Below are positions 16,733-22,692 of a DNA stretch of 60,159 nt, piece by piece. Position numbers and translations under genes: made by a program. The number at the start of each line of letters is the position of its first letter. Position 1 is the stretch's first letter. The notes under the pieces are model-generated. The model was not told the origin of the DNA. It saw only the letters and a list, made by a program, of their open reading frames with translations, and made no database searches. This DNA is from Gemmatimonadales bacterium (GTDB taxonomy: Bacteria; Gemmatimonadota; Gemmatimonadetes; Palauibacterales; KS3-K002): NCBI GenBank assembly GCA_050050535.1, contig JASFTY010000001.1, positions 1 through 60,159 of the forward strand, written 5' to 3'.

Positions 16733-16800
16733 GCTGGCGTTTATTCGTTAGCTACACCAGCCCGGCCTGGGTCGCGAAGATTGACCTGGTCGATTAGCCT

Positions 16801-17383
16801 ATGATCCTGGGATCGCGATACCCTCAGCTCAGCGGCGTGCCGCGCTGGAGCAGACGACTCGCGGCGGTCCTCGAGATCTTGGCGGTACTGGTGGGCGGCA
16901 GCCTGCTGGCCCGCACCATCAGCACCGCGGTCGGCCTGGCCAGGTCGCGAGCTCTGATCAACGCGCTGCCGGAGGATGCCACCCCCGATTTCCTGGCGAT
17001 GGCCTGGGTGACGGCCTGACGCTTTCAGCTCGATTCTGGCGGGCTACGTCTTCTACAGGACGCGGTCGCTGGTGCCGGTCGTCATAGCGCACGCCATCGC
17101 GAACGTCCCGCTCCGTGGCGCGGCCGAGCTCGCGATGCTCAGCCTGATGGTCGTGACGATCATCCTGTTCAGAGAGCCGATCGTCGCCTACGGGCGTGCG
17201 CTGTGGCTCGAGCTCGCCAGCATCGAGTCCGTGCCCGCGACCCTGGCCGCGCTGGCGCTGTTCATGGTGTTACTCGCCGCGTTGCTGTTCGCGCCGGCTT
17301 TCGTACCGGCAGTGGTGGTCGCGGCGGGGATACTGGCGCTGCTGATCGAATATCGGGACCGCGCACTCGGCACGCATGTCTGA
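16801..17383 (+). pseudogene. Remnant of a CPBP (CAAX/Abi) intramembrane protease, internally deleted and frame-shifted
   Basis: ORF 16801..17019 encodes only an N-terminal TM segment. A second frame opening after the TGA at 17009..17011 reads FSSILAGYVFYRTRSLVPVVIAHAIANVP, the last conserved CPBP motif. The EExxxR and FxxxH core motifs that should lie between are absent. Confidence 0.5.
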
Positions 17384-17391
17384 TCACGTGT

Positions 17392-17476
17392 GACATAGAA
17401 GAGCCCGGGCGTGGTGCCCGGGCTCGTTGGGCAGCGGGTTCACTCTGGGCTCTCGAGCGAGTCCCGCCGCACGCGG
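17392..17476 (-). ncRNA. Candidate short sigma-54-dependent transcript (sRNA), speculative
   Basis: Lies between the orphan -24/-12 element (17487..17501) and the hairpin 17401..17425, which on the minus strand is followed by UUCUAUGU. An internal stem GCGGGACUC...GAGU(GAA)CCCGC is possible. No credible ORF. Confidence 0.25.
17401..17425. terminator. Perfect 10-bp GC hairpin between convergent transcription units
   Basis: gagcccgggc-gtggt-gcccgggctc, 18 nt after the stop at 17383. It could terminate both strands. Confidence 0.5.
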
Positions 17477-17486
17477 TCCTCGAGGT

Positions 17487-17501
17487 GGCAACTCGCGTGC
17501 C
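17487..17501 (-). promoter_or_regulatory. Sigma-54 type -24/-12 element (orphan copy)
   Basis: Minus strand GGCACgcgagTTGCC has canonical GG-N10-GC spacing and is identical to the pilin-operon element. It sits downstream of the pilX-like stop with no CDS ahead of it. Confidence 0.45.
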
Positions 17502-17636
17502 GGGGCGCCGGCCTGCCGTCTTAGTTCCGTCGCCCCAACGGATTCCGCTGGCGGGAGTCGGCGCCCGGGCTCGCGCTATGCGGGCAAATTTTGTCCAGGT
17601 CCAGCAAAACTTGTTTCCCTGCGATCCACCTCCTAC

Positions 17637-19520
17637 TCAGCGCAGCCCCGCGAAGAATGCCGCCACATCCGCGAAGGCGCTGGGGTTCACCTCGTAGTAG
17701 CGGTTCTTCCCGTAGGCGCCCGTCGTCGGGTAGTGGGGTGGCGGACAGAACCTGGCGTTCGAGTCGTAGGCGTAGCGCTTCATGTACCCCTCGCCGCTGG
17801 TGAGTCCGACGGCGCCCCTCGTCTTCTGGATCAGTCCCCCCGTCAGGTACAGGCAACCGCGACCGTTGGGTCGATCTTCACAGGCCTCGGCGTCGCGCGG
17901 CCCGCTGTGGAAGTTCTCGACCGTGAAGCTCTGATCCAGCGTCAAGACTACGCCATCGATGAACTCGGACGGCGTGTCGTCGTAGGTGCGGCGACCACCC
18001 GGCACATTCGGGAATCGCTGAGGCGCGTTCAGGTTGTTGTCCGCCACGTAGAAGTTGCGCGCCGCGAGGAAGCCTGCGATGTCATTGCACTGCGCTGCAT
18101 TCGCGGGCACGGAATAGTTGAAGTCGTCGAGCAGCACGATGTTGTCGCTCGACACGATGGTGACACGGCCATTGAGCTCACCGCTCACGCCGATCAGGCC
18201 GTCGAAGAACAGGACGCCGCGAAATTCACCGTTATGTTCGCGGCTCAGCGGGAAGAGGAACGGGGCATCGTCGCGTCCCGCTAGAGCTTCGGGTATCGTC
18301 ATGCCCGGCGCGTGGTCTTCCCGTCTCAGCCACCCTGAGTCGTCGTCCGAACCGTCCCACTCATCGAAGCTCCGGCCGTCCATCCGCAGGCGGGGGTCCC
18401 CACCCAGATAGCAGCGGGAGGTTGGCGAGCGCGCCACCTCTCTGTAGACGCGCGTCCAATCGCTGGCGTCCTCGCCGTGCAGCAAGGCTGAATGGTTCTG
18501 CCATACGGCGATGTCGCCGGAGTACGGACCATCGTAGCCTTCGCCCAAGTAGAGCCGGCGGTGATTCGAGGCAGAGATGAACGTAGCTTCGCCGGTCACC
18601 GGATGGTTGTGTGTATCGCCGCAGTTCTCTGTCCATGTGTCCGTCCCTCTTGCCGCAAGCCATGCTGTGCTCGGAGACCTGTAGATTCTGTAGAAGCCTT
18701 CGCCTTCGTCGATCACGTCGCCGTCGCCGTTCAAGTCGATCACGACGAACTCGACCCGCATGCGGACATCGGTGGGGCCGCCGGTCGACGGGGTCGCGAA
18801 CAGCGAGCGGCCGCTCGCCGCCAGCGCTCGCAACCGGCTGAGATCGCCGCTGTCAGGCATCGGGATGGTGTCGACGTACTCCTCGTAGCCTTTCTCGAAC
18901 CTGCCGTTCCCGGGATAGAGAACGTCGCGCGCCGTGGTGACCTCGGCGTGGAAGGTCGCACCGGTGGAGTGGACCTTGATCTGATCGTTCGAGTGCACCG
19001 GGCCGAGCAGCCGGTCGCCGGCACCGAACCAGATGTTCCCGCCCTCGCTATCCGTGAAGTAGGCGAACCTGGCGAAGCTCTCCTCCGTCAGTTCAAGCCG
19101 CACGATGACCTCACTCCCACGTCCGCGAGCAACGCCCACGACACTGGCGAAGTTGCCGGTGCGGCCCGTCGCTGATCCGCTGCGGCCTGCGTAGATGCTC
19201 AGCTCGTAGTCGGCGAGCGGGTTACCCTCAGCATCCACCGGTGTGAGGCCGGATTCGAGAACGTTGTGTCCGACGTCCGGCAGCGCTTGCTCGTCCCGGT
19301 TGATGCGGCTGTGTCCCATCTCCGCCGCCATTGCCGCCAGGTAACGGAGATCGACCTGGGTCTGGGAGTAGATACGGAGCTGTCGCTCGCTGCCGCTCCT
19401 GAGGACCGCACCGGCGCTGACCGCGGCCAATACGACCAGCATCACCAGTGTGAGGATCAGTGCCGCACCGCGCTCGCCGTCCCGGCACAACGAGCCGGAC
19501 TCAACGCGATGTACTCTCAT
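17637..19520 (-). CDS. PilX-like type IV pilus minor pilin with very large C-terminal domain
   Basis: Start set at ATG 19520 (GGAGG SD). ERGAALILTLVMLVVLAAVSAGAVLRSGSERQ matches the PilX N-terminal domain. About 560 further residues include a GPVHSNDQIKV beta-helix-like motif. Confidence 0.65.
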   Translation of the reverse strand: MRVHRVESGSLCRDGERGAALILTLVMLVVLAAVSAGAVLRSGSERQLRIYSQTQVDLRYLAAMAAEMGHSRINRDEQALPDVGHNVLESGLTPVDAEGNPLADYELSIYAGRSGSATGRTGNFASVVGVARGRGSEVIVRLELTEESFARFAYFTDSEGGNIWFGAGDRLLGPVHSNDQIKVHSTGATFHAEVTTARDVLYPGNGRFEKGYEEYVDTIPMPDSGDLSRLRALAASGRSLFATPSTGGPTDVRMRVEFVVIDLNGDGDVIDEGEGFYRIYRSPSTAWLAARGTDTWTENCGDTHNHPVTGEATFISASNHRRLYLGEGYDGPYSGDIAVWQNHSALLHGEDASDWTRVYREVARSPTSRCYLGGDPRLRMDGRSFDEWDGSDDDSGWLRREDHAPGMTIPEALAGRDDAPFLFPLSREHNGEFRGVLFFDGLIGVSGELNGRVTIVSSDNIVLLDDFNYSVPANAAQCNDIAGFLAARNFYVADNNLNAPQRFPNVPGGRRTYDDTPSEFIDGVVLTLDQSFTVENFHSGPRDAEACEDRPNGRGCLYLTGGLIQKTRGAVGLTSGEGYMKRYAYDSNARFCPPPHYPTTGAYGKNRYYEVNPSAFADVAAFFAGLR

Positions 19521-19545
19521 CCGCCACACCTCCGGGTTCCGGGCG

Positions 19546-20709
19546 CTAGCCGCCCGGTGTGGTGACCGGTCCGGACGCGGCGAGCCCCGATTGAGCCGGC
19601 GTGCAATCGGTAGCGCCGAGCAGGTACACGTAGGTCTTGCCCGCCTGCAAATCCGAATCGACGTACACGTAGCTTGCTCCCGACGCGCCGGGTGGCAGTG
19701 CTGCGATCGGGCGGGGGAGTGGCTCACTCAGGTCGTGTCGATACAGCGTGTACTGCCGAACATCCATTTCGCCGGCCGACTCATCGACCGCTGGCGGCCA
19801 CGTCACCGTCACGCTGAGGGGAGACGTAAGAGTGGCGCTCGGCGCGACCCCCAGTTGCGGTGGATCGCCACACGCGGCGTTGCGAATCAAGCCTGCGTTC
19901 TTGAGTGCGATGCCCACGACGAACGGCCGTGCCACAGTCTCTCCAGGCCGGTCCCCATTCACCACGACGGTGAAGGCGGCCTCGACGAGCTTGATGCTGT
20001 CGGTGAGCGCGGAGGCCGCCGTGTCGGCGGCCGACCCGTGCTCGGGCGCGGCGTGCCAGATCGGGCCGCCACTCAGGTACCGTTGCCGACCTTCGGGGTC
20101 CATGAGCAGGTACGAGAAGAAGGCGCGCCCCTCGACCCGCTCGAGCCCGCGGAGCAGCGTGTCGGCGAGCTGCGCGTTCACTCGCCGGGTCAGCGCGTAG
20201 CGGCCGTCGCCGGTAGTCACGAACGAGAAGTGCAGCGTCTCGGCGGGACCCGGTGTACGGTCGGGGCCATACCAGCGCTGCGGGTAGTGCGCACCGTTGG
20301 GCAGGACGACGGAGGCCGAGTCTGCACCCTCGGTCTCGGTCACGGGCGCGCCAGGCAACTGGTAGACCGCGACGCGATCGCCCGGCGTGCTCGAAGCGAG
20401 GTCGACGCTGAAGACGAAGTCGTCCGGTCCGGCGAAGACGACTAGTGGTTGAGCATCCGGGATACCGGCACCGGCGAGGCCCGCTTCGCGACGCAGGAGC
20501 TCGGAGGCGAAGCGCGCCCGCTGCACTGCCTCGACCCTCACCCCAGCCAACCGAGAGCTGCGGTTCTGGGCAACGAAGAAGGAAAGCATCGAGCCGACGA
20601 CGATCCCGCTGATCGTCAGCGTCACGAGCAACTCGACCAGCGTGATACCGGCTCGGCGGCCGCGCTCGCGGTGCCGCGTCGTTTTTGCTCCGTCTGCGGA
20701 TGGCGTCAT
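19546..20709 (-). CDS. PilW-like minor pilin with C-terminal FN3-like domain
   Basis: Prepilin-type N-terminus RAG/ITLVELLVTLTISGIVVGS. The C-terminus (SVTVTWPPAVDESAGEMDVRQYTLYR...GKTYVYLLGATD) looks like a fibronectin type III module. Confidence 0.7.
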   Translation of the reverse strand: MTPSADGAKTTRHRERGRRAGITLVELLVTLTISGIVVGSMLSFFVAQNRSSRLAGVRVEAVQRARFASELLRREAGLAGAGIPDAQPLVVFAGPDDFVFSVDLASSTPGDRVAVYQLPGAPVTETEGADSASVVLPNGAHYPQRWYGPDRTPGPAETLHFSFVTTGDGRYALTRRVNAQLADTLLRGLERVEGRAFFSYLLMDPEGRQRYLSGGPIWHAAPEHGSAADTAASALTDSIKLVEAAFTVVVNGDRPGETVARPFVVGIALKNAGLIRNAACGDPPQLGVAPSATLTSPLSVTVTWPPAVDESAGEMDVRQYTLYRHDLSEPLPRPIAALPPGASGASYVYVDSDLQAGKTYVYLLGATDCTPAQSGLAASGPVTTPGG

Positions 20710-20729
20710 CTTCTCGTGTTCCAGCTTCC

Positions 20730-21140
20730 CTACTCGGCCACCGCCGTGCTGACACCCACGGGACGCAGGCCGCGGGGAGGCTCGACCGTGACGGTGATCA
20801 GGCGATAGGCGTAAAGTTCCTCAAGGTCCTCGCCGAACACCGCCACGTCGACGCGCCGCCTGAATTGCGGCGCCTCGGGCACGGGGGCCGCCGACCGAGA
20901 CACGATCTCATCGTACGGCAGCAGCCTGACGCGCTCGAGCTCCTGCATAGCGAACTCCACGGCCTGGGCCTGGACCTCGGAGATGCCGGCCTGGTGGACG
21001 AACTCGACGATCACTCGACCGCTGACGAGGATCGCTACCGTGAAGAGCACGATCGCGATCAGGACCTCCAGCACGGTGAAACCGCGTGTCGGGTCAGCCC
21101 CTGCAGGCGCGTCAGCTCGTCGACCACTTGCTGCCGTCAT
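20730..21140 (-). CDS. PilV-like minor pilin (prepilin-type N-terminal cleavage/methylation domain)
   Basis: TRG/FTVLEVLIAIVLFTVAILV N-terminus, small size, and a position between the FimT-like and PilW-like genes. Confidence 0.7.
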   Translation of the reverse strand: MTAASGRRADAPAGADPTRGFTVLEVLIAIVLFTVAILVSGRVIVEFVHQAGISEVQAQAVEFAMQELERVRLLPYDEIVSRSAAPVPEAPQFRRRVDVAVFGEDLEELYAYRLITVTVEPPRGLRPVGVSTAVAE

Positions 21141-21687
21141 AGCGATGGACTTCCGTGTAGCCGGTCGCGCGGTGGAGAACGACTACTCTCCCCTTCTCCG
21201 CACCCGGCCAACCCACGTAGACCGCACCCTCCTGTGACGCGGATCCGTTGCGTAGAAACGTCACGGTGCCGGCCTCGAAGCTTACCGCCCCGCCGGTAAA
21301 GCCCGCGTAGGGGGGCGCGTCGCCTCGGTCGAACCGCACGTTCCCGTCCAGGGTGTGTCTGATCGCACGTTCGTCGTCGTCGACCGACCCGTCGCCGTTC
21401 GCGTCCTCGTGAATGACGATGGACCCCGTGGCAACTTCGAACCTGACAACAACATCGTGCTGCTTCAGTACCGCCAGCGTCCGGGCGGCGCGCAGCCGCT
21501 GGTTCACTTCCTGTATGGCCGTGTCCAGACGCCAACTCGAGCTGTCGATGCGTGCGACGTTGAACGCCAGCACCAGGCCGATCAGCGCCAGCGTCACACC
21601 GAGCTCGACGGCCGTGAACCCGGCGTCCGATCGGGACGCAGCCGTGGCGAGCTTGCGCTCCGCCTGTCGAGGGGCATGGTCGGCCAT
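21112..21687 (-). CDS. FimT/GspH family pseudopilin
   Basis: DAG/FTAVELGVTLALIGLVLAF prepilin N-terminus followed by LDTAIQEVNQRLRAARTLAV...VVVRF, typical of GspH/FimT. Confidence 0.75.
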   Translation of the reverse strand: MADHAPRQAERKLATAASRSDAGFTAVELGVTLALIGLVLAFNVARIDSSSWRLDTAIQEVNQRLRAARTLAVLKQHDVVVRFEVATGSIVIHEDANGDGSVDDDERAIRHTLDGNVRFDRGDAPPYAGFTGGAVSFEAGTVTFLRNGSASQEGAVYVGWPGAEKGRVVVLHRATGYTEVHRYDGSKWSTS

Positions 21688-21764
21688 CGCCGCGAGACCC
21701 AGCGGTGAGGGGTTATGCCGGTGACGGTATGGGTAGGGACGGGACTTTCCTTCCGAGGGAGAGG

Positions 21765-21779
21765 GGCAACTCGCGTGCC
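21765..21779 (-). promoter_or_regulatory. Sigma-54 type -24/-12 promoter of the minor-pilin operon
   Basis: Minus strand cGGCACgcgagTTGCC with canonical spacing, about 78 nt upstream of ATG 21687. A dyad CGCGGGAAA-N9-TTTCCGCG at 21892..21920 lies about 130 nt upstream and is UAS-like. Confidence 0.5.
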
Positions 21780-21921
21780 GCCGGGCCGGCTTCGAGGTCT
21801 ATCTGAGTCCCGACCAACGGGTTCCACGGCGGTGCGATCCGCCGGGCTCCGTCGGCACCGGTCACATTTACCGAGCCGCAGAGGCAAACTCTGCGCGGAA
21901 ACCGCAAAACTTTCCCGCGAA

Positions 21922-22692
21922 CTAGCCGCCCCTCTCGAGCCCCTGCCTGGCGAGGAAGTTCCGCACCTCGTACGCCATCGCCTTGAACAGAGCCGTCTCC
22001 CGCTCGTCTAGATCGGCCCTGGCAGCTACCTCACGCACCGTCCGCATCAGAGGCTTGACCTTCTGTGCCTTGAAGAAATCGATGGCGTGCAGCGAGGCTT
22101 CGACCTCGCTGAACAGGCTCTCCAGCTCCCGCCGGTCTGCGCGGGCCGCTGCGCGCCTCGGCCGCTTGAATGGCCGCGCAGCCTCGGCGGCCAGGAAGAT
22201 CTCGTAGACGACGACCAACACGGCTTGGGCGAGGTTGAGGCTCGAGTGCCCCGGGTCGGTGGGGATCACGATGACCCGGTTGCAGAGGTCCAGCTCCTCG
22301 TTGCTGAGCCCCCGGTCCTCGCGGCCGAAGACGAGCATCACATCGTCGCCGCTCTGCGCGACCTCGGCGATCTCGACCGCCGCATCCCGCGGGCGCACGT
22401 AGTTCCGACGTACGCGCCGACCCCGGGCCGTCGTCCCCACCACCAATTTCGCCCCAGCCAGCGCATCATCCAGCCGCTCGAAGTGCTCGGCCGATTCGAC
22501 TACGTCGGTGCCGGTGTGGGCGACGCCGCTGATCCTGTAAGGGTCGAACCCGCCGGGTCGCACCAGACGCAGACGGCTCAACCCCATGTTCTTCATCGCG
22601 CGAACGACCATCCCGATATTCACCGGGTCCTGAGGTTCGTCGAGCGCGATGACCACGTGCTGCAATACCTGTCGTGAACCCATAGTGCCCAT
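21922..22692 (-). CDS. trmJ: SpoU/TrmH-family tRNA 2'-O-methyltransferase (TrmJ-like)
   Basis: VIALDEPQDPVNIGMVVRAMKNMGL, VFGREDRGLSNEEL and SLNLAQAVLVVVYE are the three SPOUT motifs. The size and C-terminal extension fit TrmJ. Confidence 0.8.
   Translation of the reverse strand: MGTMGSRQVLQHVVIALDEPQDPVNIGMVVRAMKNMGLSRLRLVRPGGFDPYRISGVAHTGTDVVESAEHFERLDDALAGAKLVVGTTARGRRVRRNYVRPRDAAVEIAEVAQSGDDVMLVFGREDRGLSNEELDLCNRVIVIPTDPGHSSLNLAQAVLVVVYEIFLAAEAARPFKRPRRAAARADRRELESLFSEVEASLHAIDFFKAQKVKPLMRTVREVAARADLDERETALFKAMAYEVRNFLARQGLERGG

Follow-up and report, generated by a model that had tools for sequence, protein, structure and literature searches.

A putative sigma-54-dependent small RNA with a predicted origin in the 3' end of a Gemmatimonadota minor-pilin operon

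Here, we analyse a 60,159-nt stretch of DNA from a Gemmatimonadales bacterium (the window), in which part of the sigma-54 regulatory module of a minor-pilin operon recurs behind the last gene of that operon, and we find it reasonably likely that this second copy, copy B, drives a conserved, sigma-54-dependent small RNA of about 85 nt whose origin lies in a 3'UTR element. In the mechanism that we favour, an enhancer-binding protein acting at copy B would bring about a start near position 17477 on the minus strand, and a stop at a hairpin and U-stretch (17425..17393) would release an RNA in which a short, variable 5' tail leads into a GC-rich stem-loop that is joined by a C-rich linker to the terminator hairpin. 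Such an RNA was one of two possibilities raised when the letters of this DNA were first read by themselves (hereafter the sequence-only reading), the other being that copy B is the relic promoter of a lost gene. The former is now favoured by the promoter, by its upstream element, by an 85-nt segment that is conserved above the neutral level and ends after a terminator, and by the retention of these features where the operon has decayed.

A duplicated sigma-54 promoter and its surroundings

Read along the minus strand, the locus runs from a SpoU gene through module A, the minor-pilin operon and module B to a hairpin terminator at 17425..17401 (Table 1). The source assembly of the window (G000) comprises 3.96 Mb and is 81% complete. 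The operon encodes, in order, a GspH/FimT-like protein, an N-methyl pilin and two longer products, one of 324 aa and one, PilX-like, of 696 aa; its Pfam matches also include a weak one to DUF4900. The segment predicted to be the RNA begins 160 nt past the final stop codon of the operon at 17637, with no terminator in between, and its own terminator lies 10-18 nt past the stop codon of the degraded CPBP-family gene. The description of that antisense gene as degraded is borne out by its two out-of-frame pieces and by the homologue of G008, which is intact (348 aa), occupies the equivalent site and is likewise convergent. Further along, positions 16733-16800 ahead of the ECF sigma gene (…ACGAATAAACGCCAGCTTGGTGTGTA…) are seemingly conserved between G000 and G002, as judged from shared ORF translations only, and may hold the ECF sigma operon's own promoter.

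Table 1. Positions of the genes, regulatory elements and predicted RNA features at the locus
Feature	Position	Strand	Remarks
SpoU-family methylase gene	22692..21922	-	Upstream of module A
Copy A upstream region	21859..21912	-	TTTGC direct repeat 21912..21883 and dyad CGGTAAATGTGACCG 21873..21859
Copy A promoter core GGCACGCGAGTTGCC, minor-pilin operon	21765..21779	-	Exact match
Minor-pilin operon, four genes	17637..21687	-	ORFs; Pfam GspH, N_methyl; homologues in relatives
Copy B upstream element, direct repeat AAGTTTTGC-N13-AAAATTTGCC	17583..17612	-	About -117 to -82 from the promoter
GGAATCCGTTGG box of copy B	17535..17546	-	Between upstream element and promoter
Copy B promoter core GGCACGCGAGTTGCC	17487..17501	-	Exact match; GG at -24, GC at -12
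Predicted small RNA, about 85 nt	17393..17477	-	5' end placed from the -12 element, 3' end from the terminator
Predicted stem-loop 1	17431..17470	-	Fold, consensus fold, pair counts
Intrinsic terminator GAGCCCGGGC-ACCAC-GCCCGGGCUC then UUCUAUGU	17393..17425	-	Terminator scan
Degraded CPBP-family gene, convergent	16801..17383	+	Two out-of-frame pieces; intact homologue in G008
ECF sigma / anti-sigma / YbjQ operon	from 16732	-	Beyond the degraded CPBP gene

That no coding sequence follows copy B also holds: there is no credible ORF after it and no conserved ORF within the segment. Three candidate small proteins were considered and rejected, namely a 35-codon TTG frame that starts within the promoter, a 10-codon GUG frame whose start and stop are lost in G001, and a frame across the upstream element that is broken by a 1-nt deletion in G004. 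Directly 3' of the last pilin stop codon stands a strong Shine-Dalgarno-like sequence, GGAGGTGG (17620-17634, minus strand), which is kept in the genus, and behind it we found no usable start codon and no conserved frame. As a separate observation, the leader of the pilin operon (21688-21764) carries blocks AGTCCCGTCCCT...ACCGTCACCGG that are conserved in the genus even where no gene follows, and it also holds CACCGCUGGG, which is complementary to the loop of the RNA in G000 and G016.

The two promoter cores are exact copies of the same 15-mer, as the sequence-only reading had noted, and the whole 3.96-Mb assembly contains exactly these two; the identity grows to 16 nt once the preceding C is counted. 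At copy B, cGGCACGcgagTTGCc (17502..17487) agrees with the sigma-54 pattern TGGCACG-N4-TTGCW at 10 of the 12 defined positions, with the GG and GC doublets 10 nt apart. The genome encodes rpoN (G000:C60, 222 bits), the absence of which would have spoken against a promoter of this type, together with at least 18 sigma-54 activator genes (Sigma54_activat). Exact cores of the form GGCAYG-N4-TTGC are not enriched genome-wide (23 against 19 in the control), many of them standing 14-110 nt ahead of ORFs, five of which have prepilin-type N-termini; since the pattern is not enriched, the promoter call rests on conservation and context. The core of copy B is invariant at every position in four species, where neutral columns are invariant at about 60%, and it is nearly so in 10 genomes and two metagenome contigs, where only C/T changes at two positions are seen and the flanks vary. 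Promoter A, for its part, is conserved at the head of the operon in other genera as well (G016, G001, G017). Copy B is thus probably a working sigma-54 promoter, and the notion of a relic left by a lost gene fares poorly against a core that is nearly invariant in 12 related sequences and a module that has been kept.

The claim that the similarity extends upstream in the same order proved real but modest. BLAST aligns A and B with 74.7% identity over the 75 nt adjoining the promoter (E 4e-4 against the genome), and MAFFT places the upstream blocks collinearly, with a 21-nt gap in B; the distance from repeat to promoter is 21 nt shorter in B than in A, which amounts to two helical turns. A multi-copy repeat is ruled out, as BLAST of A and B against the genome matches only each other. 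The upstream direct repeat in the form AAGTTTTGC-N13-A..TTTGC has only two sites in the genome, those of A and B, and none in a reversed-sequence control, which indicates that A and B share a private regulatory module beyond the promoter core alone. In copy B this repeat is conserved across the genus and is probably the binding site of an activator of the enhancer-binding type. A GGAAYCCGTTGG box is also common to both copies. The GGAATCCGTTGG box, invariant or nearly so in the genus alignment, has its counterpart in copy A as GGAACCCGTTGG (21825..21814 in the A/B alignment), and might, as far as we can infer, be the site of a bending protein or of a second regulator.

Two other sequences were considered in connection with these modules and set aside. 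The first is a relic terminator upstream of B, suggested by an 11-mer (CGAGCCCGGGC) found both there and in the terminator, but the genome holds 26 occurrences of this 11-mer where the control holds 33, so that it gives no evidence of a relic. The second is TGGCATGCGAGTTGCC (G000:C11:15911; L003:1501) as a third related promoter, from which the A/B upstream repeat is absent; its spacer is the same as that of copies A and B, and 110 nt downstream of it lies the gene for a 305-aa protein with an apparent signal peptide and two tandem repeats of about 150 aa.

A further element distinguishes the two copies. The dyad CGGTCA-N4-GACCG stands 75-95 nt upstream of at least eight sigma-54 cores, copy A included, several of which precede prepilin genes, and with up to one mismatch it occurs 208 times in the genome as against 87 in the reversed control. 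The sites in G000 are found at 21859-21873 of the window and on contigs C274 (2298, 3783), C342 (1115), C217, C311, C391 and C398. The dyad is probably the site of a general pilin activator. PilR and sigma-54 are known to control type IV pilus genes (PMC7170775, PMC6058289), and the present genome resembles that system in having pilin genes behind -24/-12 promoters as well as a PilB-PilT-PilC-kinase-activator cluster (contig C76), such that the dyad-bearing cores form a candidate regulon of the PilR-like activator encoded beside pilB-pilT-pilC. Copy B departs from it, for the pilin-promoter dyad is absent and the enhancer position (-117..-82) is occupied instead by the TTTGC repeat that it has in common only with A. 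The proposal that an enhancer-like site and its promoter had been duplicated is therefore upheld for the private repeat and the core, but B is not a full copy, and with the dyad missing from it B need not be strictly co-regulated with the pilus genes. It may be that B answers to only one of the two inputs acting on A, and its regulator may differ from the general pilin activator.

Extent, fold and conservation of the predicted RNA

The perfect hairpin reported downstream of copy B was recovered by a terminator scan (17425..17401, followed by TTCTATGT), the U-stretch behind it being short in the window (UUCU). Folding of the 85 nt gives a GC-rich stem-loop, a linker and the terminator hairpin with a minimum free energy of -48 kcal/mol (z -4.8), a value that none of 200 shuffled sequences equalled. 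Stem-loop 1 consists of a base helix, GCGGCGGG/CCCGCUGC, that is invariant across four genera, an inner helix, UCGCUC/GAGUGA, and an apical loop, GAGAGCCCA. Orthologues are predicted to fold alike, and other genera keep hairpins with different sequences. Among 16 distinct sequences, 95.5% (95-96%) of cells are paired, compared with 23-47% in slid controls, and compensatory change is seen in three of the 24 pairs, with 9 of 500 shuffles reaching the same covariation score. In the terminator the loop varies and the stem is kept, and two of its pairs show compensatory change in other genera. No variation at all is seen in the 8-bp base helix, on either strand. The covariation is thin because the sequence is too conserved, and so the secondary structure, while plausible, rests mainly on thermodynamics and is not proven by covariation.

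Rfam yields no match at gathering thresholds anywhere in the window, which rules out a known family; the best sub-threshold match, to SorX, reaches 17.9 bits where 46.6 are needed and covers only the terminator. On balance, we would regard the RNA as probably representing a new, previously undescribed family of uncultured Gemmatimonadota.

Between the last stop codon and the hairpin, the sequence shares 82-90% identity with that of seven further species of the genus, and every genus alignment ends at the U-stretch after the hairpin. Following the -12 element, the genus alignment has 9-19 variable nt, then GCGGCGGGACUCGCUCGAGAGCCCAGAGUGAACCCGCUGCCCAAC, then the terminator. In the four species for which the whole region could be aligned, invariant columns make up 93% of the RNA plus terminator and 100% of both promoter cores, falling to 75% in the region upstream of B (stop codon to promoter B), 64% between the SpoU stop codon and promoter A, 60% in the leader of operon A, 61% in the remnant of the pilin pseudogene, 58% at SpoU third codon positions and 23% in the 150 columns past the terminator. 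Set against the 58-61% of neutral columns, the 93% means that the RNA is more constrained than the protein gene beside it.

Carriers of the predicted RNA and the arrangement of their loci

With a covariance model of the RNA, each of the 10 genomes of the genus yields a single copy that scores 87-104 bits (98 in the window), and beyond the genus the score is 75 bits in G016, 71 in G022 and 40 in G013. The carriers identified in this way all belong to one Gemmatimonadota family, and in 114 genomes of the sister family the model found nothing convincing. G043 and about 20 other weak matches (25-45 bits) were not accepted as members, being terminator-like and having none of the conserved context. 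A pattern scan in which each prokaryotic species was represented by one genome gave these Gemmatimonadota genomes again and six matches in unrelated phyla, which we take to be chance, and a scan of metagenomes added further members, including L094, L096 and L102.

The loci of these carriers fall into a series of forms. In the first, the 3'UTR form (G016, G013, G022 and L102), the RNA lies 14-32 nt past the stop codon of the PilX-like gene and there is no -24/-12 element; a search of these promoter-less genomes for a hidden sigma-54 promoter met only weak, codon-driven look-alikes (GGC-RCC-TTC-TTC-GCC) of a kind not enriched over the control. Promoter B is present in the genus of the window and in L094 and L096. 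With it, the operon may be intact and followed by module B and the RNA, the form of the window that is also seen in G001 and L096, or it may have decayed, as in G002, G004, G005, G006, G007, G008 and G009, in which promoters A and B are 560-830 nt apart (loci L013 for G002, L009 for G008, L011 for G004, L012 for G009, L014 for G005 and L024 for G007). What is left of the operon there is a PilX-like fragment of about 0.35 kb, interrupted by stop codons in G009, G004 and G007 and evolving at the neutral rate, beside which module B and the RNA are intact. No other PilX-like homologue was found in the genomes with a decayed operon. PilB and PilT homologues remain elsewhere in G002 and G005, the two of these genomes that were checked. 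A last, fused form is found in G019 (CP070722.1, L062:600-880), where the SpoU gene gives way to an upstream region of the A type, then GGCATGTATGTTGCC and an RNA of about 100 nt that ends in CCCGCUGCCC, a linker and the terminator, with no pilin genes; what the RNA of G019 has in common with that of the window is limited to the architecture of the terminator and to one strand, the 3' one, of the base helix.

Across these architectures, the RNA of every carrier has a sigma-54 promoter upstream of it, whether immediately ahead of it or at the head of the operon whose tail it forms. The convergent CPBP gene stands directly behind the terminator in G008, G004, G009 and G022, an arrangement that supports a real transcript end at this point. 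The simplest order of events, a putative one, would place the 3'UTR form first and the duplication of the regulatory module within the genus. On this account the RNA would have started out as a structured 3' terminus on the mRNA of the minor-pilin operon, the form of the other genera, from which an enzyme of the RNase E/G type could excise it. In the genus of the window, the promoter of the operon and its upstream element would then have been duplicated between the last stop codon and the RNA, allowing independent expression, and two routes to the RNA would exist in the window, namely read-through from promoter A and a direct start at promoter B.

The 3'UTR form is also the natural starting point for a different explanation, by which the segment acts in cis alone, closing the pilin operon with a terminator and a protective, mRNA-stabilizing stem-loop, and copy B is accessory or decaying and has no product. 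We consider this unlikely. It is in keeping with G016, G013, G022 and L102, where no promoter separates the element from the stop codon that it directly follows, with the terminator being the best-defined part of the element, and with the target scan described below having yielded no trans target, but it does not account for the strong constraint on the element and on module B where the operon is a neutral remnant (93% against 61% invariant columns), nor for G019, which has no pilin gene and yet keeps the element, placed immediately after a sigma-54 promoter, and the invariant 40-nt upstream stem-loop would be superfluous for a plain terminator. The sequence-only reading had allowed that relatives might reveal a simple operon 3'UTR devoid of a -24/-12 element; this is what the other genera have, whereas in the genus of the window the element is conserved.

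An improbable alternative looks to the other side of the terminator and casts the RNA as a leader or attenuator, in which sigma-54 transcription from B (from A in G019) would pass a terminator under regulation and continue into the ECF sigma / anti-sigma / YbjQ operon. That operon does lie downstream in the same orientation at every locus examined, at a distance from the terminator of about 65 nt in G019, about 200 nt in G013, about 360 nt in G002 and 660 nt in the window; however, in G008, G004, G009 and G022 the two are kept apart by a convergent CPBP gene that is intact and about 1 kb long, probably the ancestral state, no alternative anti-terminator pairing is evident, and the apparent conservation between G000 and G002 ahead of the ECF sigma gene suggests, rather than shows, that the operon has its own promoter. 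An attenuator would directly precede the gene it regulates in all carriers, and such adjacency is found only in G019, G013 and G002.

It is very improbable that the conservation reflects a DNA-level function (a protein-binding site or boundary element) or recent common ancestry with no RNA at all, for although both strands of the base helix are invariant, as would follow from a constraint on sequence and not only on pairing, and the carriers all belong to one family, adjacent neutral sequence has diverged substantially in the same genomes, and a variable terminator loop on a kept stem and hairpins of different sequence elsewhere are what constraint at the RNA level predicts.

Predicted mode of action and comparison with known small RNAs

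Returning to an independently expressed small RNA, the fact that it is retained where the pilin genes have gone implies a role beyond the parental mRNA. Searches for Hfq, ProQ and CsrA in the genome of the window and in five relatives found none of them, which counts against the proposal; the RNA would most likely be a trans-acting regulator that is independent of Hfq. An RNase E/G homologue is present in relatives, making excision of the RNA from the operon mRNA by an enzyme of this type plausible.

What the RNA acts upon was approached with a scan of about 3100 predicted translation-start regions, in which no convincing target emerged. The best complement genome-wide lies where two genes for V-type ATPase-like subunits meet (C56:5502-5560, minus strand), where 20 near-perfect base pairs could form with the loop and apical region of the RNA (-37.5 kcal/mol, z -5.8), but this site is degraded in G002, G004 and G006 though the RNA there is unchanged; not being conserved, it is treated as a chance match, as it probably is. 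Other pilin leaders and the ECF sigma start were likewise rejected, none being above background. The first start region of the operon itself ranks 24th of the 3100 in G000, and its pairing with the RNA is similar in G016 but absent in G001; feedback of the RNA on its parental operon is therefore a weak lead.

The motif GCCCA is predicted to be exposed twice, in the loop and in the C-rich linker, and is reminiscent of the C-rich small RNAs that act as anti-Shine-Dalgarno sequences; the loop and linker may accordingly act on G-rich ribosome-binding regions, or the RNA may instead bind a protein. Conservation is highest in CCCGCUGCC, which the predicted fold places in base pairs, unlike a classical seed, and an invariant helix of this kind suggests a dedicated protein partner. 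It is possible, and we propose it tentatively, that the tail of a pilin mRNA was freed by its parent's duplicated sigma-54 module, outlived the operon in most species and now acts in trans through its invariant helix without Hfq, ProQ or CsrA.

Several known small RNAs resemble the predicted one in part. DapZ and MicL are type I 3'UTR-derived small RNAs with their own promoters, and in the known type I cases the promoter lies within the upstream coding sequence and is unrelated to that of the operon. The RNA of the window is like them in overlapping the 3' end of a coding unit, having a predicted promoter of its own and sharing the terminator, but it differs in that this promoter is a paralogue of the enhancer-promoter module of the parental operon. 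Stand-alone sigma-54-dependent small RNA genes are exemplified by GlmY and GlmZ of enterobacteria. Others are Qrr1-5 of Vibrio, which depend on LuxO (10.1101/2021.07.01.450815, PMC3730234), and, as cited in PMC9731577, NrsZ of Pseudomonas aeruginosa, which depends on NtrC. With these, the predicted RNA would have in common a -24/-12 promoter with an upstream activator site, a short non-coding product and an intrinsic terminator, whereas it has no Rfam homology to them, belongs to Gemmatimonadota in which Hfq was not found, and has an origin that can be traced to an operon 3'UTR.

The classes of 3'UTR-derived small RNAs have been summarized, with an internal promoter and RNase cleavage as the two routes by which they arise, in work on GlnZ, an RpoN-dependent small RNA from the 3'UTR of the sigma-54/NtrC-dependent glnA mRNA of Enterobacteriaceae (PMC9731577). 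GlnZ is the closest parallel to the form predicted for G016, G013, G022 and L102, in which the regulatory RNA would be the 3' end of an mRNA made from a sigma-54 promoter and would share its terminator. The two have no sequence or Rfam similarity, and GlnZ needs Hfq and RNase E where here Hfq was not found; GlnZ also has no promoter of its own, while the genus of the window has a dedicated predicted sigma-54 promoter, and its parent is the glutamine synthetase gene as opposed to a minor-pilin operon.

To our knowledge, sigma-54-dependent and 3'UTR-derived small RNAs are known almost entirely from Proteobacteria and Firmicutes, and we found no described regulatory RNA for Gemmatimonadota in the literature. 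If the reading of a freed, trans-acting mRNA tail is true, no regulatory RNA of Gemmatimonadota would have been described before this one, the value of which is limited by its carriers being uncultured. The RNA would also provide a natural series with each step from a 3'UTR to an independent small RNA gene, from the promoter-less 3'UTR through the duplicated module and the direct fusion to the decayed operon with the RNA kept, and in this way the origin of 3'UTR small RNAs, an open evolutionary question, would be made readable from genomes.
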